Assembly (NCBI GenBank): GCA_964567255.1
Contig: CAZMMI010000001.1
Coordinates: 1,247 to 65,246 of the forward strand
Length of the DNA: 64,000 nucleotides
Direction: 5' to 3'
Source: an uncultured Anaerolinea sp.
GTDB lineage: Bacteria; Chloroflexota; Anaerolineae; Anaerolineales; Anaerolineaceae
Part shown: piece after piece, positions 8,669-30,741 of the stretch
How positions within the stretch are numbered: position 1 is the stretch's first letter
How the letters are laid out: the number at the start of each line of letters is the position of its first letter
Translations under genes and position numbers: made by a program
The notes under the pieces: generated by a model
Told to the model about the DNA's origin: nothing
Databases searched by the model: none
The model's input: the letters and a program-made list of their open reading frames with translations, nothing else

Positions 8669-11600
8669 ATGTCTCAAAACACGGTCTTGTTCCATTCGAT
8701 GTCGACGCGAAGAACAACTTGGGCCAATTCTCTGCGAGTGCTTAGGGCGCTCGTCATTTTAACCTATCTGCTCTCGTTGATATGGGCGCCTACACTCAAT
8801 GTGCAGGCAGCCACAACCATAACCTTTACGGCGGAGGAGTTGTTGGGCAAACCCACAGACACCTCGGTGGCAGTAAACATCGTCCCCGCGGCCGACATTG
8901 AGTATCACTATCAATATGGCACCGAGGCGGGCAACTATACTGCTTCAACACCCAATGTGACTGGCATGGCCGGTCAGCCGAGTGAGGTGGTCATCACCGG
9001 TTTGAGCCCCAATACGCAGTATTACTACCGGATGCAGTACCACGCCCCGGGGGAGGCAATGGATGACTGGAACAGTCGCCCAGAGCATTCCTTCTGGACG
9101 CAGCGCGCACCGGGTCAGCCATTCATCTTCACCGTCACTTCCGACTCGCACGCTCAATTAACCGGCAACTTTCCGAATGCGATGACCAATATTTTGAACG
9201 AGGATCCCGATTTCACCGTTGACCTGGGCGATACCTTTATGATTGACAACGCCACCACGCAGACAGCGGTCAACAACGCTTACCTGGCTTACCGGGAACC
9301 GGCTTATTTTGACCGGATTGGCGGCTCGGTGCCCATCTTCCTGACGCCTGGGAACCACGAGAATGAGGAGGGATGGAACTTCGACGACGCTTTCAGCCTG
9401 CCTCTGGCAAGCATTCAAGCCAGAAAGTTGTATTATCCTATCCCCGTTCAGGATGGTTTTTATTCCGCAAACACAGACCTATTGTCTTCCATCGATGCTG
9501 GAACGTATGGCGATCAGTATCGTGAAGATTACTACGCCTGGACCTGGGGCGATGCATTGTTTGTGGTCATCGATGAGTTTCAATACACCATGGATTTGCC
9601 CTACACCGCTACAGCGGGAGAGGGCAGTGAGGCGGTTACCGGTGATCAATGGAGCTGGACGCTGGGTCAGCAGCAATTTGAATGGCTGAGACAAACGCTT
9701 GAGAACAGCAGCGCGCCTTACAAATTCATCTTCTCCCACCAGATGACGGGTGGAATCACCCGGGCTATTTCTGGCGTGGGCGCGGGTTATGTCCGCGGAG
9801 GCGCCGAAGCTGCTGCTTACTTTGAGTGGGGTGGAGCGAATTCGGATGGTTCGGACGGCTTCGCTAGCAATCGGGACCCTGCAGAATTTGGCACCGAGCC
9901 CATTCATCAGTTGATGGTCGCAAACGGGGTCAGTGCATACTTCCACGGTCATGACCATCAGTATGCATACGAGACCCGCGATGGCATCGTTTATCAAGAG
10001 GTGCCTTCCCCCAGCATGAGCGGCTCGGGGTTCAGCGGCATTTACACCGAGGGCGACCATGGTACCTATAACACCATCCGGGTTTTGCCGAACTCCGGCC
10101 ATTTGCGCATTTCGGTCACTCCAGAACAGGCAACGGTAGATTACATTTCCTCTGCTTCAACCAGCGGCACCGTCACCTACTCTTATACGATCGTGCCTCA
10201 CGCACCAGGAACAACATACACCTTGACCACCGGGGTGAACCCGGCTGAGGGCGGGACGGTCAGCCCGGCAGCAGGGGCTCACACCTACGCTGAAGGCGCA
10301 TCGGTTCCGGTCACTGCCACGCCTGCGACCGGGTTCGTTTTCTCGGAGTGGAGCGGGGCATGCAGCGGAACAGCGCCGTGCACGGTGACGATGAACTCGG
10401 ACCAGAGCGTGACGGCCAACTTCACTGCCGTGCCAACCTTCAATCTGACCACGGCAGTGATGCCTTCCGGCGCGGGAACGATCTCTCCGGCGTCAGGAAC
10501 GCATGCCTATAACCAGGGAACAGTGGTGCCGGTGACCGCGGTGCCCGGTGCGGGATATGCTTTCTCGAGTTGGGGCGGTGCGTGCGCGGGAACGGGGCCG
10601 TGCTCTGTGACGATGAACTCTGACCAGATCGTCACCGCGAACTTCACGGGCAGCGCCTTGCCAATTACCTTCACTGGAACGGAGTTCCTGGGACGGCCTG
10701 AGGATACATCGATCTCGGTGAGCGTCGTTCCAGATGCTGCCATTTCCTTGTATTACGAGTACGGCACTGTATCGGGGACTTATGCAAGTGTTACGCCGGC
10801 GATCAGCGTCGCGGCTGGACAGCCCCAGGTGGTGACCATCACCGGGTTGACCCCGAACATGCATTACTACTACCGGATGCAGTACAGCCCGGATGGCGGG
10901 GCTAGCTGGATTGCTCGCCCCGAAGGGTCCTTCTGGACGCAACGGGCTGCGGGGAGCACCTACTCCTTCACGATCACCTCTGATTCGCATATCAATATCA
11001 TGTTGGGAGACTCCGGTGCCTGGACGGACACATTGAACGATGTCAGGGTGGACAACGCCGACTTTTCCATTGATCTCGGCGACACTGTGGCGATGGACAA
11101 CGGCAGCGCCAGCATCAGTATTGGGGATGTGGCGGCTACCGAGCAGGTTTACAAAGATGTGCTTCCATTCCTCAATATCATCAGCGGCTCCTCTCCCATT
11201 TTCATGCTGCCCGGGAACCACGAACAACAAGAGGCCTGGCACCAACTGGAACCTGTAGCCAACAGCCTGCCCATCATGAGCAAGAACGCCGAAAAGAAGT
11301 TCTTACTCAACCCGCTTCCCGACTCGTTCTACAACGGAGACACCGCAACCAATCCCTATCTGAGCGGTGACCAACTGCAACAGGCTTACTACGCCTGGGA
11401 GTGGGGAGACGCTCTCTTTGTGGTGATCAACCCATTCTGGTTCACCACCCCAAAGCCATACACAACCACTGTCGGTGGTGGTGAGACGGATACCAACGGG
11501 TCGGGTAACCGCTGGGATTGGACGTTGGGGCAGGAGCAGTTCAACTGGCTGCAAACCACCCTGCAAAACAGCACCGCCAGCTATAAGTTTGTGCTTTCCC

Positions 11601-14600
11601 ACCAAATTGTGGGCGGAAATGGCATGTCTTCGCCGATCAACCAGGTGAATTACGGTCACGGCGGTGTTGATTCCGCCAATTTTGTCGAGTGGGGCGGGAA
11701 CAACACGGATGGCACCACGTACACTTGGGCGACCAATCGCATTGGATGGGGAAGCCTGCCAATTCGTCAGATGATGGAAGCCAACGGCGTGACGGCTTTC
11801 TTCCACGGTCACGATCACCAGTATGCTTACGAGCGACTCAACGGCATGGTTTACCAGGCTGTGCCGTCGGGGAGTTTTAGCGGCTCGTTCGGCACGTATA
11901 CTACGGGAGGCAATTCGGGAAATACGATCTGGGCGGATTCTACGCAGGGCCCCGGTCACCTCAAGGTAACGGTAGGGCCCGAAGAAGCCACCGTCGATTT
12001 TGTTCGCTCGGGAGCTTCATCTCCGGTCTACTCGTATACCATGCTTCCAGCGGGAACCGTAGGTGCGGGCGTGACGCAAGATGGCCCAGTCTATAACAAT
12101 ACCGCCGCAGCAAACGCCAGCAGTGCCAGCCTGAGTGTCAACACAGGGACAGGCAACGAACGCATGATGATGGTGGGCGTCTCCTGGAACTGCGGCAGCA
12201 CGGGACGGGCCATCTCCTCGGTTACCTTTACGCCCTCCGGCGGCAGCGCAGTCAATTTGGAGCCGGTCATCACCCAGCAAGCGGGGACGCAGTTGCGTTA
12301 TGCCGCTATCTACCGTCTGCTCAACCCGCCCGTCGGGGTTGCTGGCACGGTCAATGTCACCTTCTCGGGAGAGGTCAGTAACGGGATTGTGGTGGGCGCG
12401 GCCAACTTCTCAGGAGTGGACCAGGCAGACCCTCTCGGAACACCGGGCGGCGCGGGGTCTACCTCTCAGGGTACCGCTCCTACCGTGACTCTCTCTGGAC
12501 TGGAAGGAGACGAACTCGTCTTCGATACACTGTTTATGGGAGGAAACGACTCTGGACAAACTGTGACGCCTGGCGCCAGCCAGACTCAATTGTGGAGCAA
12601 TTTCTCCTCCAACACGCGCGGTGCGAGCAGCATGGAGCAGGCTTCGGGGAGTTCGGTCACCATGAGTTGGACAGCGTCCTCCTCGGCCTATTGGGCGATT
12701 GCTGCCGTTCCCCTCAACCCGTCTGACGTTACCCCGGTGTGTTACACACTGACATTGAGCCATACGGGCCAGGGCAATAATCCAACCGCCACTCCTGGGC
12801 AATCGACGAGTTGCGCGGTTCCCGGGCAGTACGAGGCAGGTCAGGCGATCTCTTTGAGTGGGGCGACGCCTGACTCGGGATGGCAGATTGGCAGTTGGAC
12901 GGGCACGGCCAATGACAGCAGCACAGCAGCCACCAACACCCTGACGATGCCTTCCAATGACCACACGGTTGCGGTAAATTTCACTGCCTTGCCAACTTAC
13001 ACCATTACGGCCTCGGCTGGAGCCAATGGAAGCATTTCTCCGTCGGGAAGCGTGCCGGTAAGCCAGGGGAGTAACCAAAGCTTTACTATCACCCCGGCGG
13101 CGAGCTATCACGTGGCGGATGTTCTGGTGGACGGCGCCTCGGTAGGGGCGGTGACAAGCTATACGTTCACGAATGTCACAGCCAACCATGCCATAGCCGC
13201 CACTTTCTCGGCAGACAACGTGTCTCCGGTGGCGGTGAACGATAGCTACAGCACCAACATGAACACCGCCTTAAGTGTGGCTGCTCCAGGCGTACTGACA
13301 AACGATACGGATGCGAATCTGGATCCTCTGACCGCTATCCGAATGAGCGATCCGCAGCATGGCACGTTGACCCTCAACGCAAACGGTTCCTTCACGTACA
13401 CGCCTGAAACGGACTTTACGGGCGATGATACCTTCACCTATCAAGCCAACGATGGCGCCCTCAACAGTAACACAGCCACCGTTACCATCAATGTCAGCAA
13501 TAGTTTGCCCCCTGTGTTGCCCTCCAGTTTCTATGGTGAGATCCATATTCTTACCAATCCGCCCACACCTGGGCAACTCATCTACGCCTACGTGCCGGGG
13601 GTGGCGGACCCGGTGGCAAACGATGTGATTAGTAACGCCACGCCGCTGAACTTCTCGATGGATGTTCCCGGTGACTCGACCGCTACACCGGCCAAGGACG
13701 GCGGCGTCAGCGGCGACACCATTACCTTCCGCATCGATGGGCGAATCGTTGCCACACATGCCTGGGTCGGCGGGACCAACGTCCGCCTGGATATTCATCC
13801 ACCGGAAGCGGTCGCGGGTGGGCCGTATTCGGGGGACGAAGGCGCTTCGATTAGTTTCTCCGGTTCGGCAAACGATTGGGGCTCCGACAGCTCTACCTAC
13901 CAGTGGGATTGGAATAACAACGGCGTCTACGATGCTTCGGGACAGACTCCAAACCACACCTGGAACGATAACGGCGCCGTGACGGTTGGCATGAAAGTGA
14001 CCGATTTGCAAGGCGGCGAGGGTTTCACCACCTTCACTGTGACCATTCTGGACGTGCTGCCGGGCAATGTGGACGCCGGCGGGCCGTACTCAGGGTCCAC
14101 CGGCCAGTCGATCTCCTTGAACGGGTCGGCAAACTGCGCCGCGGTGGACACCTGCTCGTTTGCCTGGGACCTGGATGGTGACGCGGCTTACGATGACGCC
14201 ACGGGGATGACTCCCAGTTACGTCTGGAACGCGGCCGGTGATTTCACCATCGGGCTGCGAGTCAGCGATGAAGACGGCAACGCCGTGACCGACACAGCCA
14301 CCGTCCACATCACTCCCGGCAATATGGAAATCTCGTTGGTGGCGGGCTGGAACCTGGTCTCCTTCAATCTGGCGCCGACCGACCCTGCCATTGCCACGGT
14401 TCTCAACAGTATTGCGGGGAACTACGATCTGGTTTATGCATGGGACGCTCAGGCAAGCAATTGGCTGAAATACGCGCCCAATGTGGGCTACGGCGACACG
14501 CTGACCGAACTGGACGAGACCAGCGCTTTCTGGATTCGGATGACGGCAGCGGATACGCTGGTGGTGTCTGGTACCGTCCCAACGACGACGGATATCCCCT

Positions 14601-14845: not shown

Positions 14846-14857
14846 CAGATGATAGAC

Positions 14858-14910
14858 GCGGCAGGCTTGGCTAGAGAGACACGGGGAACCTTTCTAGCCG
14901 GGCCTGCCGC
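14858..14910 (+). terminator. Strong intercistronic hairpin after P1
   Basis: GCGGCAGGC-tt-GGCTAGA...TCTAGCC-gg-GCCTGCCGC gives 16 paired bases. It starts 13 nt after the P1 stop and is followed by cagTTTGTGTTGTGG. Confidence 0.5.
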
Positions 14911-14998
14911 CAGTTTGTGTTGTGGCGTCCAAACGCCCGTTCTCCGAAATATGACCAGCTTGCGGAAAGCATTGCTTTTGATCTTGTACGGAGGGAAC

Positions 14999-17900
14999 AT
15001 GCACCACCCATTCAATGCTCGCTTGATTTCGCTTTTTATCATCCTGAGTGTGCTGTTTAGCGCGCTTGGGTTGCCCGCGACAGTAGTTCAGGCCGCCGCC
15101 GTGATCACCTTTAGCGGCACAGAGCTTCTGGGTCGCCCAACATCCAGCTCGGTCACTATCAACATTGTTCCCGATATCACGATCGAATATCACTACGAAT
15201 ATGGCATTGCGCCGGGGACGTATACTGCTCAAACGGGTAATGTGACTGCTACGGGCGGACAGCCCAGTGAGGCGGTCTTGTCTGGACTGACTGCGAATAC
15301 CCGGTATTACTACCGGATGCAGTATCATGCCCCGGGCGACCCAGCGGATGACTGGGTGAACCGCACCGAGCATTCGTTCTGGACGCAGCGTACGGAAGGA
15401 AGCGCGTTCTCGTTCAGTATCACTTCCGATTCGCATGTGAACATTATGCTGGGCAATGCGGCTACCTGGACGCAGACTATGACCAATATTGCCGGCGCAG
15501 CGCCGGATTTTCAAATTGATCTGGGCGATACCTTTGCCATGGATTCGGTCACAACAGCCAACGCAGCGGATGCGGCCTATCTGTATCAACGCCAATTTTT
15601 TGACCTTGTCGGTCATTCCACGCCGATCTTCCTGGCTGCAGGCAATCACGAACAACAAGAGGGCTGGCATCTCGATGATACAGGCAGTCCGCCGGTGCTT
15701 TCGACCAATGCGCAGAAGAAGTACTACGTCAACCCGGCGCCAGACGGTTTTTACACAGGCGACACGGAAACCGTGCCGGAACTGGATGGCGACCACCTGC
15801 GCGAGGATTATTATGCCTGGACCTGGGGCGACGCACTCTTTGTAGTCATTGATCCCTTTTGGTTTACTACGACCAAGCCATTCATCGGTACCACGGGCGG
15901 CGGTGAAGAGAACGAAGGTTCTGGTAACCGCTGGGATTGGACGTTGGGCCAGACTCAGTTCAACTGGCTTCGGACGACCCTTGAAGGAAGCGATGCGCGG
16001 TACAAATTCGTCTTTGCCCACCACATGACCGGCGGATCGGACGATTATGTCCGTGGCGGGGCCAACCCGGCACACCTGGTTGAATGGGGTGGATACAACG
16101 AGGCGGGCACGACCTACGAATGGGAAAGCCAACGACCCGAATGGGGCAGCGAGCCGGTGCATCAGATATTTGTCACCAATCACGTCAGCGCCTTCTTTCA
16201 TGGGCACGATCACCAATATGGTTACGAATCTCGGGACGGTGTGGTGTATCAAGCCCTTCCCGCCGCTGGGTTCTCGGGGAGCGGGTTTGGTATCTATACC
16301 TCCGAGGAGGGGTACACCATCCAGGCGATGCCCAGCCCGGGTCACTTACAGGTATCGGTGAATTCCACCCAGACCACGGTGGATTACATCGCGACGAGCG
16401 GCGCAACCGTGAATTACTCATACGCTATTGCGCCCTTTTCGGAGCCCGATTTCACCATTACCGCCACGGCAGGTCTGAATGGTAGTATCAGCCCGGCGGG
16501 TGTTGTGGGTGTGGTCTCGGGCGCGAACCAGAGTTTCAGCATTACGCCCAATTCCGGCTACCAGGTGGGCGATGTGCTGGTGGATGGTGCCTCGGTTGGC
16601 CCCGTGACCGTGTATGAATTTACCAATGTTGTGGCCAATCACACGATTGAATCCAGCTTTGAGCAAAGCTCGCTGACTTCGCCTGTTTTGGACGGAGCCG
16701 TATCCAGTGGTACCGCGGCGAGCGGCAGCAGCATTACGGTCAATCACACCACCGGCACAGGGGCAGACCGCCTGATGCTGGCAGGGATCTCCTGGAACTG
16801 TGGCTCTACAGGGCGTACCATCTCATCGGTTACCTTTACGCCCTCCGGCGGCAGCGCCGTGAACCTGGAGCCAGTCATCACCCAACAAGCCGGGACGCAA
16901 TTGCGTTACGCGGCCATTTACAGCTTGCTCAACCCGCCCAGCGGGACGGCAGGAACACTGACGGTCACCTTCTCGGGATCGGTGGGCAGCGGGATTGTGG
17001 CAGGAGCAGCGAACTTCATGGGGGTGAACCAAACGACTCCACTTGGCACGCCGGGTGGAGCGGGCCCGAGCTCCGGAACTACTACCCCCACTGTGACCCT
17101 CACCGGTTTGAGTGGCAGTGAGCTCGTTTTTGACACCGTGTTCATGGGCGGAAGTGGTTCTTCGCAGACGTTAACTCCTGACACAGACCAATCCCAATTA
17201 TGGAATGATTTTGCCGGGAATACGCGGGCAGCGGCCAGCACAGCGTTAGCCGCGGGCAGCTCTGTGACCATGAATTGGACGGCGGCGAGTTCGGCTTACT
17301 GGGCGATTGCTGCTGTTCCGATCAATCCAGCCCCTTCTGGGCCCCCCACCTATACCCTCAGCATGGCGGCATCTCCATCCATCGGCGGGACGGCAACAGA
17401 CTTGACCGGTACGTCTCCTTATGAATCTGGCGAGGTGGTGAGTATCAGCGCCGCTCCGGTTGCCGGGTATCACTTCGTGAATTGGTCGGCTCCGGCAGGC
17501 GCTTTTGGAGATGCCAACGCAGCTTCTACCACCTTCACGATGCCCACTCAGACGGTTACTGTGACAGCCAACTTTGCCCCTGATTTCACTTATGCGCTGG
17601 ACATGGCCGTGTCACCTGGCGGCGGGGGGACTGCTACGGATCTCACCGGGGCCTCTCCCTATGGCCCAGGTATGGTGGTGAATATCAGCGGCGCGGCTGC
17701 ATCCGGGTACCGCTTTGTTAACTGGACGGCACCGGCGGGGACGTTTGGAGATCCGAACCTGGCTGCCACAACGTTCACCATGCCCGCCCAAGCAGTTACC
17801 GTGACGGCAAATTTTGCCCCGGCGGTGACCCTGGATGGGGCCGTCGTCACCAGTACAGGGGCTGCAAATGCCAGCAGCGCCTCCGTGGCTGTTGATACTG

Positions 17901-20632: not shown

Positions 20633-20646
20633 TATATCGCTCGGTC

Positions 20647-20688
20647 GGTCAGGTTGGCGTGCGTGCGGAATGGCACGCCAACCTGACC
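20647..20688 (+). terminator. Perfect 16-bp-stem hairpin between P2 and P3
   Basis: GGTCAGGTTGGCGTGC, a 10-nt loop, then GCACGCCAACCTGACC, starting 15 nt after the P2 stop. There is no immediate T-run, so it could be a terminator, an RNA-stabilising element or a processing site. Confidence 0.5.
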
Positions 20689-20758
20689 AGAGCAAATCTC
20701 ATCATTTTGAGCATTGAACCATAAACGGTGAGCTAGTCTTTGTGAGGGGAAGGCGATT

Positions 20759-23700
20759 ATGAACACAAATTGGATGGTAAAAAAGTCTCTGTCCACATCT
20801 GCGAGGAAGCTCTTTCAGGGTTTCTTTGCCCTGCTGTTTGCGCTGTCGTTGGTGGGTATACAACCGCCCCAACAGGTTCAAGCGGCAGCCTATACCTGGA
20901 TCGCTTACAATGATTCGGTCTCAGGCTCTTCACAGCACACAACTGCGAATACGACCACCATTGCCTATAATGGTTCCGGTCAGCTCAGAAGGCAGTCCGA
21001 CGGCAGCAATACTGGCATTACCGCGGCGTTTACTTCCAATGGATCTATCTCATCCACGTCGAATGGGGTGGACGCGAACTCAGGGACAGATGCATATAAC
21101 ACCTTCTACCCGTATGCGGATATGGTCGGAGTGGTCAATAGCAGCACGTCGGGGTGGTGGGTTGACCTGACTTTGAGCGGGCTGGATCCTGCCAGGACCT
21201 ATACCTTTGCAGGTTCTACCGCTAGAGATGGGGGCTATACAACCCGTAACACCACCTTCATCCTTTCAGGCGATACCGCAGCGATAAACGCCAGCACGTC
21301 CGGCGTTACCGTGGTCGATGATCACACCATTGCCATCAACACCGGGACCAATCGGGCACAAGGGTATGTTGTCCGCTGGACAGGGATCAATCCAGGCTCG
21401 GACGGTACCATCGTGATCCGTTCACGGGCATCTACAACATCGGAAATTGCAGGCTCGGTTGCGAATGCCTATGCCCTGAGTGTGTTCATGCTCGCGGAAG
21501 AGACCACCGATCCTGTGATTACTGTGGCTGGCGCGCTGAACGCATTCACCAGCCAGCCAGGAGTCTACTCAACCGTTCAGACTTATACGGTCTCGGGGGG
21601 CAACCTGACGGAGGACATTAGCATCGATGCCCCCGCGGGCTTTGAGCTATCTACCAATGGGACGGATTATTTCGCTCACCTCTCCTTACCACGGATTGCG
21701 GGGGACGTGGCTCCAACGACAATTTCTGTCCGGCTGTACTCGGGAACAATTGGCCTGTTCCAGGGGAATATCACTCACGCCAGCAGTGGGGTGATTACGA
21801 ATATGCCCGTCTCGGGTACGGTGACTACGTGCGGAAGTGATTCAATGGTCGCCGTAGAAGACACATACTTGAGCGCGAACGACCCCACTTACAATAACGG
21901 TGGAAACACATCCCTGCACATCAACGGAACCACCGGCACGGACAGGCGGACGGCGCTGCTGAGATGGGATTTGAGCTCGATTCCATCGAACGCGGTGGTT
22001 ACTTCGGGCAGCCTCGGGGTTTATGTGAGTGACACATCCACCGTTGCTTACAGCCTGTACAGTATGAGGCAAAGCTGGGTGGAAGGCACCAGCACCCAGG
22101 CGGCTTCGACAACCAGCGCAAACTGGAACACCTATAACGGCGCAGGCAGTTGGGGAACTGCAGGGGCAGCAAGTACCAGTCTGGACCGGTTTGATACCAA
22201 CTTGTGGAACGCGACCACAACCAGTTTTTCCACGACGGGCAGCAAGACCGTTATTTTAAATGCTGCCGGGGTGAGTGCTGTGCAAGAGTGGATCAGCGGA
22301 GCAGCCGGTAATTACGGTCTGATCATTCAAGACTACACAGGCTCATCGAATTCCTTGTATATTGCATCCAGCGAAAATACAACAGAGGTCAATCGCCCCA
22401 GGCTTAATCTCGAGTACTGCGCCGGTAGCGAAACATACGCTGTCAATGCGACCAGCTCAGGGCACGGGAGTGTAACGATCAGCCCGCTGGCTGCGTCTTA
22501 CCCATCCGGAGTCACGGTGACATTGACTCCAGTGGCCGACCTTGGTTATGAGTTCGGCTCGTGGAGCGGGCCGGATGCCGCCGATGTGCTCAATAACGGC
22601 AACGGCACCTGGTCCCTGTTTGTCGATGGAGATAAAACGGTCTTCGCCGACTTTGTAATTTCCTCCGTGAATGTGGCACCCTATGCGCCGGTGCTGATGC
22701 AGCCGGCAGATGATGCCGTGAATGTGTCTGTTCCTCCAACGTTACAGGTGACTGCCAGTGATCCCAACCCATTGGACACGCTGAACGTCAGCTTCTATGG
22801 GCGAGAAGTAAGCACAACCGCGGGGCCTGATTTCAGGCTGGTGGCGATCCCTGACACACAAAACTATGCCACCAGTTATCCGGATGTGTTCACCGACCAT
22901 TTGCAATGGATTGCGGATAGCCGAGAGCCAATGAATATCGTTTTCGCCACATCCGTGGGGGACATGGTCAACACCGCCACTAGTGCAACGGAATATACCC
23001 GGGCAGATACGGCCTATGATCGGCTGGATGCGGGGAATGTCAACTACAGCGTCGGTCCCGGCAACCATGATACGACCAGCGGCAGCCTGTGGCCCACTTA
23101 TTTCGGCGTTTCACGCTTTTCCGGGAAGAGTACCTACGGCGGCGCCTACAATGATTACAACACCTACCATCTCTTTAGCGCTTCGGGCATGGATTTTCTA
23201 CTCATCAATCTGCAATACAACCCCACCAGCGCGATTCTTGACTGGGCGGATGCGCGCCTGAAAGAGTATCCTGATCGCCGAGCCATTGTGGAACAACACG
23301 ATATTCTCAATACGGACGACTCCTGGAATAATCAGGCTTCGTACAATGCGCTCAGGGACAACCCCAATTTATTCCTGATGCTGTGTGGGCATATGCACTC
23401 TACCAGCGACGGCGCTGCTTACCGCGCTGAAACCGGTACGGATGGGCATACCATCCACATCGTCATGCAGGATTATCAGGATGAAGCAGGCAGCGGCTAT
23501 TTGCGGATTTACCGCTTCTCGCCTGCCGATGACATGATCTACATGACCACATACTCGCCAATTACAGGGGAGTCGCTCACCACGTCTCCGGATCAAATGA
23601 ATCTATCCTATGACATGGGGGGGAACATGACGCCTTATGGACTGATTGGCACGGTTCCCAACGTGGTTAACGGCAGCAATGCCTCCGTCCCCTGGCCCGG

Positions 23701-26623
23701 CCTGGCGCCAAATACGGAGTATGAGTGGTACGCGGCGGTAAGCGACGGTGCTTCGACTACCAATGGTCCCACATGGTCGTTCACCTCAGGTACGGGCAGC
23801 GGCAATACTCCGCCGGTGATCTCGGGTGAAGACCCGCGGGCAGTGACCATGTCGGAAGACGGCACGCCTACCGCCTTTAACCTCACCCTCAACGCCACGG
23901 ACATCGATTTAGGCGATACCTTGACCTGGAGTGTCGCCACGCCTGCCGGTTATGGAACGGCGCTAGCCTCCGGCACAGGTCCATCTACGGTGGTTAGTTA
24001 CACACCAACAGCCAATTACTATGGAGCAGATGGCTTTGTTGTCCAGGTCGCAGACGGCAACGGCGGCGCCGATACCGTCACTGTCAATGTGACCGTGGAA
24101 GCGGTCAACGACCTTCCGGTTGCTGACCCTCAGAATGTGTCTGTCTTCATCGACACGGCCAGGGGAATCACTTTGACGGGTTCCGATATTGACAGCAGTA
24201 CGCTCAACTATATGCTGGTCAGCAACCCGACGAACGGCTCTTTGACAGGAACAGCGCCTGGACTCACCTATACCCCGGCATCTGACTATACCGGCCCGGA
24301 TAGCTTCACATTCTTGATCAACGATGGGGTAGGGGACAGCAATACGGCTACGGTGAATATTCAGGTTTCATCTGGGAATCCTCCGCAGATGCCTTCTAGC
24401 TTCTACGGTGAAATCCATATTTCCGATCAGCAGCCGATCGTTGGTGATCTTGTGGAGGTCTATGTGCCGGGGGTGGTAACACCGGTTGCCAGCACAGCCA
24501 TTACCACAGATGCTGGTCAGCTAGTTTATACACTCAGCGTTCCCGGGGAGGACGGGGTGGATCCAAAAGAGGGGGGCGTCGAAGGGGATGTCGTCACGTT
24601 CAGAATTGGAACGCGCGTTGTTTCCAGCGGCGTCTGGCACACAGGCACCAATGTTCAAGTGAATATCCACCCGCCTGAGGCAATCCCCGGAGGACCTTAT
24701 GACGGTTCGGCTGGGGTGGCGGTTGGCTTGAGCGGAGCGGCCAACGATTGGGGCGCGGATGTTTCCACCTATGAATGGGATTGGGACAACGACGGTACTT
24801 TTGACGCGACCGGCCAAACACCCAGCCACACCTGGGCTAGCAATGGAGCGTACACGGTAAGTCTGCGGGTGACCGATTTGAATGGCGGTCAGGGTACCGC
24901 CCTCACGACAGTTAATGTGGTCAACCATGCGCCTACCGATATTGACCTCTCTGCCAGCACGGTAGCCGAGAATAGGGTAGCCAATACGCTTGTCGGTACT
25001 TTAACGAGCACCGATCCAGACCCTGGCAATACATTCAGCTACGCCCTGGTTAGCGGCGCAGGGAGCGACGACAATGCCTCCTTCAACATCGACGGTAACA
25101 ACCTGAGAACCTCGGCTGTCTTTGACTACGAAACGAAGTCCAGCTATGCGGTGCGCATCCGCACAATGGATCAAGGCGATCTGAACTATGAGGAGAGTTT
25201 TGTTATCACAGTCTCGGATGTGAACGAGGCTCCAGTCGTGGCAGATATCGCCAATCAGACCATCGCTGAGGGAGCGGCGTTTGCTGCCATCAGTTTGGAT
25301 GACTTTGTTTCCGACGTGGATAACGCAGACGCGCAAATGACCTGGACGTTCAGCGGAAACGTGGATCTGGCGGTGAGCATCACCAACCGGGTAGCCACGA
25401 TCACAGCTCCCAACAGTGATTGGAGCGGCGCCGAGACGATTACTTTCCGGGCTGCCGATCCCGGCGGGCTGTATGACGAAGATGCCGCCACCTTCACCGT
25501 CACGGCGGCAAATGATGCGCCGGTGGTGATGGATATTCCAAACCAGACAATTGTCGAGGGCGGAGCGTTTGCGACCATCAGCCTGGATAATTTCGTCTCG
25601 GATGTGGATAACACAGACGCCCAAATGACCTGGACGTCTAGCGGCAATACGAACCTTTCAGTGAGTATTACCAATCGGGTGGCTACGATCTTAGTGCTGG
25701 ATGCTGAGTGGAACGGATCGGAGATCATCACCTTCCGCGCAGCCGATCCGGATGGGCTGTTTGACGAAGACACCGCTATCTTCACCGTGACCGGAGTGAA
25801 CGATGCCCCCGTGGTGAGCAATATCCCCGATCAGAGCATTCTCGAGGGCGCGACCTTCTTTACCATTCCCCTGGACGATTACGTTGTAGACGTGGACAAC
25901 CCCGACACGCAGATGGTCTGGTCATATAGCGGCGATGTCGATTTGGCGGTCAGCATTACTGATCGAGTCGCCACGATTACCCCGCCCAACTCTGCCTGGA
26001 GCGGCGTGGAAACGATCACCTTCCGCGCCACCGATCCGGACGGGCTGTTTGATGAGGATGTTGCCACCTTCTCTATCACTTCAACCGTTGTGACCCATGA
26101 TTATCCTCTGGTGGTGGGCTGGAACCTGGTGTCCTTTGACCTTCACCCGACCAGCACCGCTATAGCGGATGTGCTGGCTTCGATCAGCGGCCAGTATGAC
26201 CTGGTCTATGGTTGGAATGCAACTAGCGGCTCGTGGATGAAATATGCTCCGGGCGTTGGGTACGGTGACACGTTGACCACACTGGATGAAACCAGGGGCT
26301 TCTGGATCAAGATGAACGCAGCCGATACCCTGTCTGTGAGCGGCACAGTGGTGAGTCCTACCAGTATCGCTTTGGAGAGTGGATGGAATCTGGTTGGGTT
26401 CCCGGCAGGTGCCAGCCTGGTCTTGCCCGATGCATTTACGCTGCATGGCGTAGACACCGAGCTCGATCTGGTGTATGCCTATCGGGCCAACGAACCGAGC
26501 GACCCGTGGAAACTGTTCGACCCTGAAGCGCCGGATTGGGTAAACGACCTGAATGAAATGGCGCCGGGATGGGGCTATTGGGTGTTCGTCTCGGCGGATT
26601 GCACTTGGAACGTGGTGCATTAA
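20759..26623 (+). CDS. Giant secreted mosaic protein P3 (1954 aa) with a distinct metallophosphoesterase domain
   Basis: GAGGGGAAGG lies upstream of the ATG at 20759, and the signal peptide ends QQVQA|AA. It has an unassigned N-terminal region and a DNRLRE-like beta-sandwich (ALLRWDLSSIPSNAVVTSGSLGVYV..SWVEG). The MPE has PDTQ / GDMVN / GNHD / QHD / GHMH. It also carries VCBS/cadherin-like Ig modules, an FYG module, one PKD domain, one cadherin domain, three 96-aa repeats and the shared C-terminal domain. Confidence 0.85.
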   Translation: MNTNWMVKKSLSTSARKLFQGFFALLFALSLVGIQPPQQVQAAAYTWIAYNDSVSGSSQHTTANTTTIAYNGSGQLRRQSDGSNTGITAAFTSNGSISSTSNGVDANSGTDAYNTFYPYADMVGVVNSSTSGWWVDLTLSGLDPARTYTFAGSTARDGGYTTRNTTFILSGDTAAINASTSGVTVVDDHTIAINTGTNRAQGYVVRWTGINPGSDGTIVIRSRASTTSEIAGSVANAYALSVFMLAEETTDPVITVAGALNAFTSQPGVYSTVQTYTVSGGNLTEDISIDAPAGFELSTNGTDYFAHLSLPRIAGDVAPTTISVRLYSGTIGLFQGNITHASSGVITNMPVSGTVTTCGSDSMVAVEDTYLSANDPTYNNGGNTSLHINGTTGTDRRTALLRWDLSSIPSNAVVTSGSLGVYVSDTSTVAYSLYSMRQSWVEGTSTQAASTTSANWNTYNGAGSWGTAGAASTSLDRFDTNLWNATTTSFSTTGSKTVILNAAGVSAVQEWISGAAGNYGLIIQDYTGSSNSLYIASSENTTEVNRPRLNLEYCAGSETYAVNATSSGHGSVTISPLAASYPSGVTVTLTPVADLGYEFGSWSGPDAADVLNNGNGTWSLFVDGDKTVFADFVISSVNVAPYAPVLMQPADDAVNVSVPPTLQVTASDPNPLDTLNVSFYGREVSTTAGPDFRLVAIPDTQNYATSYPDVFTDHLQWIADSREPMNIVFATSVGDMVNTATSATEYTRADTAYDRLDAGNVNYSVGPGNHDTTSGSLWPTYFGVSRFSGKSTYGGAYNDYNTYHLFSASGMDFLLINLQYNPTSAILDWADARLKEYPDRRAIVEQHDILNTDDSWNNQASYNALRDNPNLFLMLCGHMHSTSDGAAYRAETGTDGHTIHIVMQDYQDEAGSGYLRIYRFSPADDMIYMTTYSPITGESLTTSPDQMNLSYDMGGNMTPYGLIGTVPNVVNGSNASVPWPGLAPNTEYEWYAAVSDGASTTNGPTWSFTSGTGSGNTPPVISGEDPRAVTMSEDGTPTAFNLTLNATDIDLGDTLTWSVATPAGYGTALASGTGPSTVVSYTPTANYYGADGFVVQVADGNGGADTVTVNVTVEAVNDLPVADPQNVSVFIDTARGITLTGSDIDSSTLNYMLVSNPTNGSLTGTAPGLTYTPASDYTGPDSFTFLINDGVGDSNTATVNIQVSSGNPPQMPSSFYGEIHISDQQPIVGDLVEVYVPGVVTPVASTAITTDAGQLVYTLSVPGEDGVDPKEGGVEGDVVTFRIGTRVVSSGVWHTGTNVQVNIHPPEAIPGGPYDGSAGVAVGLSGAANDWGADVSTYEWDWDNDGTFDATGQTPSHTWASNGAYTVSLRVTDLNGGQGTALTTVNVVNHAPTDIDLSASTVAENRVANTLVGTLTSTDPDPGNTFSYALVSGAGSDDNASFNIDGNNLRTSAVFDYETKSSYAVRIRTMDQGDLNYEESFVITVSDVNEAPVVADIANQTIAEGAAFAAISLDDFVSDVDNADAQMTWTFSGNVDLAVSITNRVATITAPNSDWSGAETITFRAADPGGLYDEDAATFTVTAANDAPVVMDIPNQTIVEGGAFATISLDNFVSDVDNTDAQMTWTSSGNTNLSVSITNRVATILVLDAEWNGSEIITFRAADPDGLFDEDTAIFTVTGVNDAPVVSNIPDQSILEGATFFTIPLDDYVVDVDNPDTQMVWSYSGDVDLAVSITDRVATITPPNSAWSGVETITFRATDPDGLFDEDVATFSITSTVVTHDYPLVVGWNLVSFDLHPTSTAIADVLASISGQYDLVYGWNATSGSWMKYAPGVGYGDTLTTLDETRGFWIKMNAADTLSVSGTVVSPTSIALESGWNLVGFPAGASLVLPDAFTLHGVDTELDLVYAYRANEPSDPWKLFDPEAPDWVNDLNEMAPGWGYWVFVSADCTWNVVH
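25238..26101 (+). repeat. In-frame tandem repeat, 3 x 288 bp (96-aa unit), inside P3
   Basis: Units start at 25238, 25526 and 25814 (V.DI.NQTI.EG.AF..ISLD.FVSDVDN.DAQMTWT.SGN..L.VSITNRVATI....W.G.E.ITFRAADP.GL.DED.A.FTVT..NDAPV). Confidence 0.9.
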
Positions 26624-26727
26624 GAAGCGCATATGGATTCACCCGTATAGCCGCGGAATCAAAGGGGTTGTACGGGTGAGCTTCCAGATCTTTTTACATG
26701 ATTGAAACGTGTTGTGGAGGTACTCAG

Positions 26728-28836
26728 ATGAGTAAAAAGAGTTTGTTGGTTAGCATCACGCTGATGCTGGGTTTGTTGTTTTTCAATGTTCAGAGCGCCA
26801 TGGCTGTTCCGCCAATTCCGTCTGGTTTCTACGGGACGGTCAAAATCGATGGCGCGAATGTCCCCGACGGCACAGTCATTTCTGCTCGGATTGGCGGCAT
26901 TGAATATGAGAATACAACAGTTCTTCTCTATGGAGGAGATACCGTATTTAGCCTGGATGTTCCGGGGGATGACCCGGAAACAGCCGGGGTTGTGGAGGGC
27001 GGCGTTCAAGGAGAAACAATCACCTTCTTCATCGGCTCCGTTCAGGCCAACCAGACCGCGACCTGGCAATACGGCACAAATATCTCCTTGAACTTAACCG
27101 CAAGCAGTAATCACGCGCCGACCGCCATTGGTCTATCTGCCAGCAGTATCGCAGAGAATGCTGCTGCCAACACGGTGGTAGGCACGCTTTCCACCACGGA
27201 CCCGGATGCAGGGAATACCTTTACATATAGTCTGGTCGTCGGAACCGGCGACACAGACAATGGAGCCTTTAACATCTCTGGGAGCAGCTTGCGGGCCACA
27301 AATTCCTTCAACTATGAGGTCAAATCCAGCTACTCTGTGCGAGTTCGTTCCACCGATCAGGGCGGATTGTATGCTGAGCAGGCCTTCACTATCACGGTCA
27401 CCGATGTCAACGAGGCGCCCACGGTGGTGGCTCTGTCTGCTTCAAGCATCGCCGAAAATGCTGCTGCTAACACGGTGGTTGGCACGCTTTCCACGACCGA
27501 TCCGGACGCAGGTAATACCTTCTCTTATAGCCTGGTTACTGGAACCGGTGATACGGACAACGGAGCCTTCAATATCTCGGGGAGCAGCCTGAGGGCCACG
27601 GCGTCCTTCAATTATGAGGTCAAATCCAGCTACTCTGTGCGGGTCCGTTCCACGGATCAGGGCGGGTTGTATGCTGAGCAAGCCTTCACCATCACGGTCA
27701 CTAATGTCAATGAGGCGCCTACGGTGGTGGCTCTGTCTGCTACGAGCATTGCTGAAAATGCTGCTGCCAACACGACGGTTGGCACGCTTTCTACAACAGA
27801 CCCGGACGCAGGCAACACCTTCACCTACACTCTGGTCACCGGAACCGGCGACACGGACAACGCTGCTTTCAATATTTCTGGAAGCGGCCTGCGGGCCACG
27901 AATCCCTTCAACTATGAGGTCAAGTCCAGCTACTCCGTGCGGGTCCGTTCCACGGATCAGGGCGGGTTGTATGCTGAGCAAGCCTTCACTATCACAGTCA
28001 CGAACGTAAACGAAGCCCCGGTGATTACGGAGAGCGATCCTCAGAGTGTGACCATGTCCGAAGACGGTTTGCCGGTTGCCTTCAGTCTCACCTTGCACGC
28101 ATCAGACGTGGACAGCGGAGACGTTCTGACCTGGTCCATTTCCACCGCGGCGCTGCATGGCACAGCCAGTGCTTCGGAGACGGGCGGCGAGAAGGCGATT
28201 GGATACGTTCCGAACAGCGGATACGCTGGTACAGATAGCTTCGTTGTGCGAGTCACCGACGCGTTTGGGATCAACGATAGCCTGACCGTGAACGTGACGA
28301 TCACGTCGGTTACTCGGCTTGATTTGGTTCTGGGGTGGAACCTGGTCTCTATCGATGTGCATCCCACAAATACAGACATTGCGAGCGTGCTGGGGTCGAT
28401 CGCGGGAAGTTATGACCTGGTCTATGCCTGGGATGCGACCAGCGGTTTGTGGGTCAAGTACGCCCCCAACGTCGGTTACGGAAACACATTAACAACGTTG
28501 GATGAGACCATGGGTTTCTGGGTGCGGATGACATCGCTGGATACGCTGGAATTGAGCGGGACGCAGCCTGTCACTACCGAGATCGAACTCCACACAGGTT
28601 GGAATCTGGTCGGGTTCCCCTCTGGAACCAGCCTGCCGCTGCCGGACGCGTTGAGCTTGCACGGCGCGGGGTCCGATTTCACCCTGGTGTACAGCTACCA
28701 TGCTGCCGATGTAGCCGATGCCTGGAAGAGATATGATCCTGCGACAGCCATCGGGAATGACTTGACTGAGATGGCACCCGGTTGGGGTTATTGGGTTCGG
28801 ATGAGCGCTGACCGCACCTGGACCGTCCCATACTAA
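26728..28836 (+). CDS. Secreted protein P4 (702 aa): FYG module, three cadherin repeats, an Ig-like module and the shared C-terminal domain
   Basis: The track ORF is 26698-28836. The ATG at 26728 has GGAGG upstream. The signal peptide ends NVQSAMA|VPPIPSGFYG. The cadherin units end in DVNEAP. Confidence 0.85.
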   Translation: MSKKSLLVSITLMLGLLFFNVQSAMAVPPIPSGFYGTVKIDGANVPDGTVISARIGGIEYENTTVLLYGGDTVFSLDVPGDDPETAGVVEGGVQGETITFFIGSVQANQTATWQYGTNISLNLTASSNHAPTAIGLSASSIAENAAANTVVGTLSTTDPDAGNTFTYSLVVGTGDTDNGAFNISGSSLRATNSFNYEVKSSYSVRVRSTDQGGLYAEQAFTITVTDVNEAPTVVALSASSIAENAAANTVVGTLSTTDPDAGNTFSYSLVTGTGDTDNGAFNISGSSLRATASFNYEVKSSYSVRVRSTDQGGLYAEQAFTITVTNVNEAPTVVALSATSIAENAAANTTVGTLSTTDPDAGNTFTYTLVTGTGDTDNAAFNISGSGLRATNPFNYEVKSSYSVRVRSTDQGGLYAEQAFTITVTNVNEAPVITESDPQSVTMSEDGLPVAFSLTLHASDVDSGDVLTWSISTAALHGTASASETGGEKAIGYVPNSGYAGTDSFVVRVTDAFGINDSLTVNVTITSVTRLDLVLGWNLVSIDVHPTNTDIASVLGSIAGSYDLVYAWDATSGLWVKYAPNVGYGNTLTTLDETMGFWVRMTSLDTLELSGTQPVTTEIELHTGWNLVGFPSGTSLPLPDALSLHGAGSDFTLVYSYHAADVADAWKRYDPATAIGNDLTEMAPGWGYWVRMSADRTWTVPY
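27115..28014 (+). repeat. In-frame tandem repeat, 3 x 300 bp (100-aa cadherin unit), inside P4
   Basis: Unit boundaries are at 27115, 27415, 27715 and 28015. The units are near-identical at both nucleotide and protein level. A diverged single copy is present in P3 at about 24925-25225. Confidence 0.9.
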
Positions 28837-28934
28837 ATTGCGAAGAACAACGCAGGTCAGGCCGAAAAGAACATTGAAAGCATTCTTCGGCCGGGCTTGC
28901 CAAATGACAAAGCCATTAGAACACGAGAGGATTC

Positions 28935-29534
28935 ATGAAAATACTGAAGCAAATATCGATCTGCCTTTTGATATGCCTGATGAGCCTGTTTGTCGCCGAA
29001 CCTGTGTTGGCTTTTCCCCCGCTGCCATCCAGCTTTTATGGAAAAGTCAAAGTAGACGGGGAAAATGTGCCAGACGGAACCGTGGTCGAAGCCTGGATCA
29101 ATGGGAAAGTGTATACAGAGGCGAAAACGCAAACTTACGAGGGGGACTCGGTCTATGCGATGGATGTGACCGGCGATGACGCCAGCACGAACGATGTGGA
29201 GGGAGGGATCGAGGGTGACAAGATCGAGTTTCGGGTTGCTGGGCAGGTTGCTGGACAGTCTGGCATATGGCACAGCGGTACGAACACCAATCTGGACCTT
29301 TCCGTCGCGTCGGCGGCGGATCAGGTTAACCCTGCTGCAACAGCTGTACAAGCGACGCAAGCCCAACCTCAACCTGTACCTCTTGATGAGATCTCTCGAG
29401 ATTCTACCAGTCAGGATATCACCACCACCAACAACAACCGTCTCTTAACAATTACCTTGATCGTCGCCACTGTCGTGATCGTTTCCGTTGTCTTTTGGCT
29501 CCTATTCATCCGAAAGCCAAAGGTCAAGCCATAA
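28935..29534 (+). CDS. Small FYG-module protein P5 with a C-terminal transmembrane anchor
   Basis: 199 aa with GAGAGGA upstream. The signal peptide ends EPVLA|FPPLPSSFYG. One FYG module is followed by a low-complexity linker, then LLTITLIVATVVIVSVVFWLLF and a basic tail, IRKPKVKP. Confidence 0.8.
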   Translation: MKILKQISICLLICLMSLFVAEPVLAFPPLPSSFYGKVKVDGENVPDGTVVEAWINGKVYTEAKTQTYEGDSVYAMDVTGDDASTNDVEGGIEGDKIEFRVAGQVAGQSGIWHSGTNTNLDLSVASAADQVNPAATAVQATQAQPQPVPLDEISRDSTSQDITTTNNNRLLTITLIVATVVIVSVVFWLLFIRKPKVKP

Positions 29535-29553
29535 ATTGAAAGGAAGTGTTACC

Positions 29554-30246
29554 ATGAAGAAATCGCAAATCCTCGTCGCTTTTCTTGTGGTTTTTGCCAT
29601 TCTAGCGCTTAATGTGCAACCCACATACGCTTTTCCGCCCCTTCCATCTGGCTTCTATGGATCGGTCAAGATAGACGGCGTCAACGTCCCCGCCGGAACG
29701 GTTGTAATGGCCAGAATCAATGGTGTCCAATATGCTTCCACGGTGATTACAACCTATCTTGGGGACACAGTTTTTAGCCTGAACGTACCTGGAGATGATG
29801 CGGATTCGCCGGGCGTGATTGATGGAGGCGTGCCTGGAGACATGGTTGTGTTCTTCATTGGATCGCGTCAAGCGGAACAGACCGCCCCCTGGACCAGCGG
29901 ATCGAATGTTCCTTTGAACCTGACGGCGGTGGGCAATTATGCGCCGGTGATTACCGAGGGCGGTTCAGTAAACGTGACGATGTCAACCGCGTTTGACCTC
30001 ACTCTACATGCTACCGATACCGACGGAGATGAAATCACCTGGGGCATTGCGACCGCTGCCAGCCACGGTTCCGCCACGGCCAGCGGCACCGGAACTTCAA
30101 AGGTGATCGGGTACGCTCCGAACGCGCAGTATGTGGGGGCCGACAGCTTTGTTGTCCAGGTGTCGGATGGCAGGGGCGGCACAGATACCATCACCGTTAA
30201 CGTTACGGTTCGCGCGGTCCTATTCTTACCGATGATCAGTCGATAG
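29554..30246 (+). CDS. Small secreted protein P6: FYG module plus one Ig-like (VCBS/cadherin-like) module
   Basis: The track ORF is 29488-30246. The ATG at 29554 has AGGAAG upstream. The signal peptide ends QPTYA|FPPLPSGFYG. The second module (ITWGIATAASHGSATASGTG..VIGYAPN..YVGADSFVVQVSDGRGGTD) is homologous to modules in P3 and P4. Confidence 0.8.
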   Translation: MKKSQILVAFLVVFAILALNVQPTYAFPPLPSGFYGSVKIDGVNVPAGTVVMARINGVQYASTVITTYLGDTVFSLNVPGDDADSPGVIDGGVPGDMVVFFIGSRQAEQTAPWTSGSNVPLNLTAVGNYAPVITEGGSVNVTMSTAFDLTLHATDTDGDEITWGIATAASHGSATASGTGTSKVIGYAPNAQYVGADSFVVQVSDGRGGTDTITVNVTVRAVLFLPMISR

Positions 30247-30712: not shown

Positions 30713-30741
30713 TTGACACCGATATATGAACCAGCTATAAT
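30713..30741 (+). promoter_or_regulatory. Consensus sigma70-type promoter of the MFS-TetR operon
   Basis: TTGACA (30713-30718), an exact 17-nt spacer, then TATAAT (30736-30741). It lies 46 nt upstream of the MFS start codon. Confidence 0.7.

Follow-up and report, generated by a model that had tools for sequence, protein, structure and literature searches.

The stretch of DNA analysed here (the window; 64,000 nt) derives from an uncultured Anaerolinea sp. (assembly GCA_964567255.1, contig CAZMMI010000001.1) and harbors a cluster of six co-directional genes, termed P1 to P6, on the + strand at 8669-30246. Their products combine metallophosphoesterase (MPE) domains and adhesin-like repeats with three shared modules, termed A, B and C, of which A and B define a conserved, lineage-wide gene cassette in Chloroflexota. 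P1 (8669-14845, 2058 aa) comprises a signal peptide, an FN3-like domain paired with an MPE domain, two InlB-B repeats, a second FN3-like and MPE pair, module C, two more InlB-B repeats, a Big_9/cadherin domain, module B, two PKD domains and module A. P2 (14999-20632, 1877 aa) possesses a signal peptide, one FN3-like and MPE pair, an InlB-B repeat, module C, two InlB-B repeats, a second module C, an InlB-B/Flg_new array and module A, and has no module B. In P3 (20759-26623, 1954 aa), the signal peptide is followed by an unassigned N-region of ~320 aa, a DNRLRE/CBM96-type domain, an MPE domain of a D-T-Q type, a Big_9/cadherin domain, module B, a PKD domain, a cadherin domain, three Big_9-like domains and module A. 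The three smaller proteins are simpler. P4 (26728-28836, 702 aa) has a signal peptide, module B, three cadherin domains, a Big_9 domain and module A; P5 (28935-29534, 199 aa), the archetype of a small B protein with a transmembrane (TM) segment, has a signal peptide, module B, a Q/P/T-rich stalk, a C-terminal TM helix and the tail RKPKVKP; and P6 (29554-30246, 230 aa) has a signal peptide, module B, a Big_9 domain and the short C-terminal tail LFLPMISR.

The coordinates given for the six genes in a first-pass annotation of the window were reproduced exactly by open reading frame (ORF) listing and translation. A GGAGG-like ribosome-binding site precedes each gene, and the intergenic gaps from P1 to P6 are 153, 126, 104, 98 and 19 bp. 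All six products are predicted, with identical starts and no names, on one 67,337-bp NCBI contig. A signal peptide could be read by eye on each of them, as the first-pass annotation had said, with the cleavage context VQA↓A in the giants P1-P3, A↓VPPIPSGFYG in P4, A↓FPPLPSSFYG in P5 and A↓FPPLPSGFYG in P6. The six N-termini are classical Sec signals, from which export and surface display of the proteins are predicted. A scan of the gaps between the six genes, 19-153 bp in size, detected no terminator-like site, and a perfect TTGACA-17-TATAAT promoter-like site (sigma-70-type; 30713-30741, +) ahead of a gene for an MFS transporter marks the downstream boundary of the cluster. This layout is operon-compatible, and the six genes may be co-expressed. 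A close relative keeps the order P2-P3-P4-P5-P6 with different downstream genes, at identities of 84% for P3, 81-87% for P4, 78% for P5 and 74% for P6.

Pfam and NCBIfam bore out the modules that had been named in the first pass, namely InlB-B (Flg_new_2), cadherin/Big_9, PKD and VCBS. The matches are two Metallophos domains, Flg_new_2 (InlB-B) repeats, Big_9/cadherin/VCBS and PKD in P1; one Metallophos domain with Flg_new_2 and Flg_new repeats in P2; Big_9/cadherin, PKD and DNRLRE (CBM96-type) in P3; cadherin, Big_9 and VCBS in P4; and Big_9/cadherin in P6. The three further modules, which the first-pass annotation had left unnamed, proved to be real paralogous blocks in an all-against-all BLASTP of the proteins. 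Isolated modules A, B and C, together with the P3 N-region and the P3 MPE-like segment, gave zero Pfam matches even at E≤5, and the whole proteins gave nothing in the regions of modules A, B or C in NCBIfam at E≤0.01. Against PDB sequences, the three modules returned nothing or chance-level matches (RAD23, streptavidin). Kinship among A, B and C was ruled out by hhalign. None of the three domain families is represented in Pfam (2025 copy), NCBIfam (June 2026) or PDB.

Module A makes up the last ~170 aa of P1-P4 (14336-14842, 20093-20626, 26108-26617 and 28324-28830, respectively, all +). It is a tandem domain that arose by internal duplication of a unit of ~85 aa beginning with GWNL (hhalign probability 99.9%, E 5e-31), and Trp, Tyr, Gly and Asn prevail in its conserved core (GWN twice, W66, W134, W157 and GYW). 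AlphaFold2 modelling and a Foldseek search, which the first-pass annotation had proposed for the unassigned segments, yielded a confident all-β model of the P4 copy (pLDDT 97.1, pTM 0.91) and no relative in PDB. The best Foldseek hit in PDB had an E value of 0.14, nothing fell below E=0.1 and the TM-scores were at most 0.25; the best hit in BFVD had an E value of 0.04. The hits, comprising bicupins, crystallins and phage receptor-binding proteins, were judged to be noise, and a search of PDB sequences with the module A profile was empty. The model depicts a two-lobed all-β domain with an apparently new fold. An antisense ORF family of 136-317 aa lies opposite module A in 20 loci (e.g. 6475-7029 of locus L001); these ORFs are almost certainly no genes but an artefact that arises because the coding sequence is conserved and poor in stop codons.

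A word-indexed search for module A retrieved 36 homologues, in all of which the module sits at the extreme C-terminus. In GTDB species-representative genomes, a pattern scan detected the module in at least 579 coding stretches, with several copies per genome; for the 71 loci kept, the record titles name Chloroflexota in all but three. The lineages include Anaerolineae, Caldilineae, Ardenticatenaceae, Villigracilis, Brevefilum and Longilinea. Among 100 complete copies from 73 fetched loci, 93 end 0-6 aa short of the stop codon. The heads of 30 module-A proteins from different genomes are diverse: Metallophos in 8, β-helix/NosD in 6, Peptidase_C25 in 3, BNR/sortilin in 3-4 and CBM96 in 2, besides Ig-like repeats and lectin-like modules. 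Given this diversity, with Metallophos on only 8 of the 30, module A is best seen as a general C-terminal tag for which the MPE is a recurrent but not a defining cargo. Stand-alone proteins that consist of a signal peptide, a linker and module A also exist (P0146, P0149 and P0154), one of them lipoprotein-like. Some copies of module A are placed towards the N-terminus or centrally in very large ORFs, as in L065, L070 and L072 (~128-213 aa into ORFs of ~1800-1900 aa) and also in L063; the genomes with such non-C-terminal copies belong to Ardenticatenaceae or are unclassified.

Module B is a domain of ~100 aa that begins with PPLPSSFYG. It is internal in P1 (13502-13804) and P3 (24377-24676), and N-terminal in P4 (26803-27102), P5 (29010-29306) and P6 (29629-29928), always on the + strand. 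An exhaustive HMMER search found 3238 cluster representatives at E≤1e-3, of which 1284 remain at E≤1e-10; architectures were counted on the best 150. In nearly all of these, module B starts at about residue 26, right after the signal peptide, mostly in proteins of 140-350 aa. At least 74 of the 150 consist of signal peptide, module B, linker, TM segment and basic tail, like P5; 15-28 end in [FY]LP[LIM][IVL]xx, like P6; and 7 end in module A, like P4. Pfam at E≤1 on 30 diverse module-B sequences matched 13 families once each, with no consistent signal. Natural fusions of B to A exist, and one of them, P0126, was modelled with pLDDT 86 and pTM 0.75; a Foldseek search with this model retrieved only multi-domain β noise.

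P5 has the predicted topology of a type-I membrane protein, in which a Q/P/T-rich stalk of 44 aa leads from module B to a TM segment of 23 residues (29442-29510, +; aa 170-192) and the basic RKPKVKP tail. The suggestion of the first-pass annotation that P5 could act as a tether gains comparative support from many Chloroflexota genomes, in which genes for a signal peptide, module B, stalk and predicted TM segment directly follow module-A genes, and P5 probably has such a role. The tail of P6 (LFLPMISR; 30220-30243, +) belongs to a "YLPLI-type" that can be written as hydrophobic-[LIV]-P-[LIVM]-[LIVM]-x(0-6)-COOH. It terminates 28 of the 150 module-B representatives and 13 of 68 ORFs that contain only module B, compared to 11 of 2148 background ORFs, among which are several that encode large secreted proteins; the loci noted for the tail are L001, L006, L037 and L063. 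The tail also resembles the strand just ahead of GWN in some copies of module A, such as 'IYLPLVMGWNLISL' in P0151. It could act as a C-terminal signal for sorting or assembly throughout the lineage. Within the window, a tail of this type, RIFIPLILN, ends an unrelated cadherin/PD40 protein of 1426 aa (16-4296, -).

Module C, of ~210 aa with a SWNCGST motif, occurs once in P1 (12071-12712) and twice in P2 (16679-17323 and 17822-18469), on the + strand. It has 101 homologues, none of them annotated and some outside Chloroflexota.

The coupling of modules A and B was counted on the 93 module-A copies, from 66 loci, for which 1.5 kb or more of sequence is available downstream. For 42 of these A ends (31 of the 66 loci), the next gene lies 97-282 bp downstream on the same strand and starts with a signal peptide and module B. 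In 1000 trials of random placement within the same loci, the number averaged 2.4 and reached 8 at most, so that the observed number represents a 17-fold excess. These 42 downstream genes comprise 22 that encode small TM-anchored proteins and about 11 that encode proteins running from module B to module A; in several loci, the module A of such a protein directly precedes the next module B. A second B gene lies within 1.6 kb in 24 cases. The order of P4 (B to A), P5 (B with TM segment) and P6 (B, Ig-like domain and tail) matches the cassette exactly, and the order of A, TM-anchored B and B recurs behind unrelated heads, for instance a pectate-lyase-like β-helix protein on a 1.06-Mb contig.

Clustering of the ORFs of at least 120 aa from 72 loci revealed no other gene family common to more than 6 loci, and no sortase, peptidase, glycosyltransferase, transporter or secretion gene is shared by more than 6 of them. 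The only widely shared families (12-29 of the 72 loci) are A- or B-containing ORFs and the antisense artefact. The first-pass annotation had described the cluster as a phosphoesterase/adhesin arsenal. Its MPEs are real; however, the conserved entity is the A/B cassette, and the MPEs are interchangeable cargo; only 8 of 30 module-A proteins of other genomes carry one. A full cassette is also present on a contig (L069, CAZKBD010000009.1) that was assigned by binning to an uncultured Methanosarcinales archaeon, where module A occurs three times and a module-B gene follows the second copy at 159 bp; this reflects either misbinning or transfer outside Chloroflexota.

Three of the four MPE domains of the cluster resemble purple acid phosphatases (PAPs). 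They are located at 9128-9964 (P1 domain 1; DSH..GDTFM..GNHE..SHQ..GHDH; PF00149 at aa 154-432), 10964-11824 (P1 domain 2; DSH..GDTVA..GNHE..SHQ..GHDH) and 15419-16219 (P2; DSH..GDTFA..GNHE..AHH..GHDH), all on the + strand. Pfam Metallophos, run as the first-pass annotation had advised, passes its gathering cut-off of 21.5 bits in both proteins, with 72.9 bits over two stretches in P1 (40.3 bits for the isolated segment of domain 2) and 25.4 bits in P2. The motif strings reported in the first pass are all present, and SDSH, GD, GNHE, H and GHDH are invariant in the three copies, which share 49-57% identity. A profile of the three copies found human and rat TRAP in PDB (2bq8, 1war and 1qfc; E=1.5e-4 to 6e-4). 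In this alignment, which places motifs II-V, the metal ligands of human and rat PAP are matched by GD, GNH[DE], the His of motif IV and GHDH, P1 domain 1 included; DSH was identified as motif I directly in the sequence. None of the outcomes that the first-pass annotation had named as fatal to its reading (ligands away from catalytic positions, proteins not exported or genes not co-expressed, an already characterised system) was encountered, and the ligands sit at catalytic positions.

The three domains are canonical DxH-type MPEs of the PF00149 superfamily with a predicted phosphoesterase activity. Compared to the PAP/PhoD-type proteins (PF00149, PF16656 and PF09423), they have the same MPE domain with GD, GNH[DE], H and GHxH, here behind a putative FN3-like N-domain, but they sit inside surface proteins of ~1900-2060 aa and their GDTF[MA] lacks the Tyr ligand of Fe(III). 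The N-domain model Pur_ac_phosph_N (PF16656) scores 31.2 bits on whole P1, 20.6 bits on P2 and 19.9 bits on the second P1 copy, against a cut-off of 30. True purple acid phosphatases were rejected as a class, as motif I reads DSH where these enzymes have DxG, and Met or Ala stands at the Tyr position of GDxxY (GDTFM, GDTVA and GDTFA). Membership in PhoD was also rejected: the match of PF09423 in P1 is confined to profile positions 145-342 (50.4 bits), and the PhoD equivalog NF058638 of NCBIfam reaches 14.6 bits where its cut-off is 1000. With high confidence, the cluster consists of real genes whose products are exported, bear genuine MPE domains and belong to the conserved A/B cassette. The three domains are read as PAP/PhoD-like DxH enzymes behind a putative FN3-like domain.

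The MPE domain of P3 (22832-23563, +; PDTQ..GDMVN..GNHD..QHD..GHMH) is of another type, in agreement with the first-pass annotation. PF00149 gives no match to the isolated segment even at E≤5; among its 261 homologues (E down to 1e-137), however, many have a PF00149 match or bear the name "metallophosphoesterase [Anaerolineae bacterium]", which places the domain in the MPE superfamily. In a 25-member alignment of this separate family, D60, Q62, G95 D96, G129 N130 H131 D132, H208 and G238 H239 are invariant, and T61 and the last His of GHxH (H241) are conserved in at least 90%. Since D60 and Q62 are invariant, motif I of the family is D-T-Q and not D-x-H. The best PDB sequence match of the family profile is GpdQ (2zo9 and 3d03), which is not significant at an E value of 0.55 but has motifs II-V in register, and NCBIfam gives a faint cAMP-phosphodiesterase match on P3. 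P3 shares GDiVN, GNHD, H and GHxH with the class III phosphodiesterases GpdQ and CpdA, whereas it differs in motif I and in belonging to a secreted family; in other phyla, homologues are fused to the C-terminal domain (CTD) of the type IX secretion system (T9SS) or to dockerin, SLH or InlB-B export and anchoring modules. From its sequences, the family appears to be populated, secreted and uncharacterised. Overall, the MPE domains of the cluster are new members of known families.

Other parts of the giants are also of note. The DNRLRE (CBM96-type) domain of P3 (21857-22411, +), which had not been named in the first pass, matches NF033679 of NCBIfam with 63.4 bits against a cut-off of 34, and the ~320-aa N-region ahead of it (aa 44-366; 20888-21856) has no Pfam match at E≤5. 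Coding tandem arrays correspond to the cadherin repeats of P4 (27148-28013; 300 bp, 2.9 copies) and the InlB-B repeats of P2 (18749-19422; 222 bp, 3.0 copies), and a third lies in P3 (25215-25851; 288 bp, 2.2 copies). P4 homologues of close relatives have 802 aa compared to 702 aa here, a difference of about one ~100-aa cadherin repeat, which suggests that the repeat number varies between strains. Directly upstream of P1, an ORF of 198 aa (7524-8120, +) has only faint zinc-ribbon matches. Its apparent counterpart in the relative L001, likewise of 198 aa, is a mis-call overlapping the end of P2 and the start of P3, and the upstream ORF is therefore not conserved with the cluster. Further away, a protein of 2877 aa (55344-63977, -) with GH94 and glucoamylase-like parts resembles cyclic β-1,2-glucan synthase, and two paralogous MalT/LuxR-type regulators are encoded at 39085-41883 (+) and 44174-46858 (+); a link of these genes to the cluster is not evident.

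The explanation of the whole that we favor, by a slight balance of probability, is a cassette for surface display, specific to the lineage, that carries MPEs as cargo and has P5 as its tether. In this model, the four binuclear MPE domains that form the enzyme heads of P1-P3 would most likely hydrolyse extracellular phosphoesters, and the hydrolysis would serve the acquisition of phosphate from organic phosphorus or polymers; judged by family membership, such scavenging has about an even chance of being correct. The cargo proteins P1-P4 end in module A, and the last cargo gene is followed by P5, whose predicted type-I topology would let the Pro/Gln/Thr-rich stalk cross the cell wall and present module B outside. 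Module B of P5 would then serve as the receptor, anchored in the membrane, and would capture module A or stabilise it, by which the enzymes and adhesin-like repeats would be kept on the surface of the filament. The additional copies of module B, internal in P1 and P3 and N-terminal in P4, could daisy-chain the cargo, and P6 follows as a second small B protein with its YLPLI-like tail. Direct docking of A to B is a tentative proposal with somewhat less than even chances.

Several observations weigh against this model. Module A is rich in invariant Trp and Tyr, like glycan-binding wall anchors, and for that reason could attach to the wall by itself, with no need of B; a few divergent genomes (L065, L070 and L072) have it near the N-terminus. 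In 51 of the 93 cases, no B gene follows the A end within 400 bp, mostly in more divergent lineages or inside arrays. P6 has module B with neither an anchor nor module A, and docking does not account for it. The pTM of 0.75 for the cis-fusion P0126 is at most suggestive of docking, the promoter and terminator scans argue only weakly for an operon, export is read from the sequence alone, and motif I of P3 has Gln at the position of the canonical metal-ligand His.

A rival possibility is that module A is itself a non-covalent wall anchor that binds peptidoglycan or a secondary wall glycopolymer, like SLH, GW, CWB2 and WxL, with the B proteins as independent co-expressed surface components (spacers or adhesins) instead of receptors. 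The extreme C-terminal position of module A, its tandem repeat, a core of Trp, Tyr, Gly and Asn that is typical of glycan-binding repeats, the stand-alone proteins P0146, P0149 and P0154 and the 51 A ends lacking an adjacent B gene would all fit. Yet a pure wall anchor leaves both the 17-fold excess of B-led genes after module A and the lack of any other conserved gene in the loci unexplained, and module A matches no known wall-binding module in sequence or fold (Pfam, PDB, Foldseek and hhalign), which makes this possibility unlikely in our view. Moreover, anchoring and docking are compatible, as WxL systems show both (PMC10599100).

A strictly C-terminal domain on very diverse cargo might also be a secretion or sorting domain that is removed on export, like the T9SS CTD, with the YLPLI-type tail as its minimal or processed form; the enrichment of the tail on B proteins, its presence on other large secreted proteins and its resemblance to the strand before GWN in some module-A copies (P0151) point in this direction. 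We consider it very improbable, given that the neighbourhood of the cassettes (72 loci) holds no conserved candidate for a sortase, peptidase or secretion gene, that 170 aa in a duplicated and highly structured domain are large for a signal, that module A is near the N-terminus in some divergent genomes, and that all six proteins already carry ordinary Sec signals. Equally small is the chance that A, B and C are substrate-binding modules, similar to carbohydrate-binding modules (CBMs), of freely released enzymes, brought together by tandem duplication and shuffling with no role in assembly. The extensive paralogy and recent repeat expansion in the cluster, the difference of one cadherin repeat between P4 homologues and the CBM96/DNRLRE and lectin-like modules would agree with such a history. 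However, the architecture of signal peptide, module B, stalk and TM segment, which carries no enzyme in at least 74 of the 150 representatives, is ill-suited to a CBM carrier, and shuffling does not readily give the same order of A, TM-anchored B and B behind unrelated heads in many genomes.

Activated sludge, digesters, sediments and soils are all rich in filamentous Anaerolineae, which are known for hydrolytic activity associated with their surface and for an unusually large number of predicted wall-bound proteins (PMC11495043). Filamentous Chloroflexota are reported to have many predicted wall-bound hydrolases, and a secretome survey of activated sludge placed Chloroflexota at the top of the monoderm-type lineages in predicted wall-bound proteins (PMC11495043). 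If a conserved cassette of cargo tag and anchor operates in this phylum, the surface exo-enzyme repertoire would become predictable from genomes, and the cassette would offer a testable model of surface enzyme assembly in a phylum with an atypical envelope. The modules also provide three populated families for Pfam and structural work, with at least 579 genomic copies of A, 3238 representative clusters of B and about 100 homologues of C. Finally, the four MPE domains point to a possible turnover of extracellular organic phosphate, one of them from a family in which an invariant Gln replaces the metal-ligand His.

The closest architectural parallel is found in the WxL/WxLIP (csc) clusters of Lactobacillales and Listeria (Siezen 2006, PMC1534035; Hassan & Williamson, PMC9772566 and PMC10599100), in which a C-terminal domain with a dual W-x-L motif is bound by a cluster-encoded partner consisting of a signal peptide, an Ig-like part and a TM segment (PMC9772566, PMC10599100). 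Both systems have large multidomain proteins that end in an all-β domain of ~170 aa with two W-x-L motifs in WxL and GWNL twice in module A, small proteins with the C-terminal domain alone, Sec signals on all components, a cluster-encoded partner of signal peptide, Ig-like ectodomain, C-terminal TM segment and basic tail, and often an extra small anchored protein. This WxLIP-like architecture is found in P5, in 22 of the 42 genes downstream of module A and in at least 74 of the 150 module-B representatives. The two systems differ in that GWNL opens each half of module A whereas the second WxL motif lies at the very C-terminus, in that the Chloroflexota partner has one domain of ~100 aa instead of DUF916 and DUF3324, and in the Chloroflexota host, the enzyme heads and the lack of an LPxTG protein or sortase.

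Homology to WxL was suspected because module A literally carries W-x-L twice; the two GWNL motifs, about 88 aa apart in a C-terminal domain, are nevertheless a resemblance only. For the comparison, genuine Enterococcus plasmid clusters were collected by tblastn with a peptide from PMC10599100 as the seed. Superposition of profiles by hhalign gave a probability of at most 0.9% for module A against nine Enterococcus WxL domains (PF13731), compared to 98.7% for a control of small against large WxL, and of at most 0.4% for module B against three WxLIPs; Pfam WxL, DUF916 and DUF3324 have no match in the six proteins. With the control positive and these alignments negative, the likeness is architectural and apparently convergent, not one of family membership. 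A literature search on Chloroflexota surface anchoring, dockerin/cohesin, WxL and Anaerolineae MPE-adhesin systems found nothing relevant.

The cassette may also be compared to cohesin-dockerin systems, where diverse exo-enzymes likewise share a C-terminal module, a cell-anchored scaffold bears the complementary β-sandwich and internal modules allow higher-order assembly. In contrast to module A with its 170 aa of all-β structure, dockerin is a Ca-binding EF-hand pair of 70 aa, and neither dockerin (PF00404) nor cohesin was found by Pfam in the six proteins. The GW, SLH and CWB2 wall anchors attach diverse enzymes by C-terminal tandem repeats of ~80 aa, and the GW repeat of Listeria, like the repeat of module A, begins with Gly-Trp; module A, however, has no Pfam match, and its Foldseek search in PDB gave nothing below E=0.1. 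Pfam scans of P1-P6 detected no T9SS CTD (PF18962), SLH (PF00395) or GW (PF13457) domain. Sortase-type anchoring was rejected, as none of the six proteins has a C-terminal LPxTG and the TM segment and basic tail of P5 are without this motif.

In its boldest form, which we find doubtful, the proposal would be that A and B are a previously unrecognised, Chloroflexota-specific protein-protein docking pair, functionally convergent with WxL/WxLIP and cohesin-dockerin, in which B proteins with stalk and TM segment are the receptors, module A is a universal exo-enzyme tag, internal B modules build head-to-tail chains and the YLPLI-type tail is a second, related assembly signal. If this were true, phosphoesterases, lyase-like β-helices, C25 peptidases and sialidase-like proteins would be among the cargo of an ordered enzyme coat on filamentous Anaerolineae. 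Altogether, the best reading of these comparisons is that the A/B cassette follows a logic of C-terminal tag and anchored partner like that of the known systems, built from unrelated domains and with a predicted docking of the one to the other.

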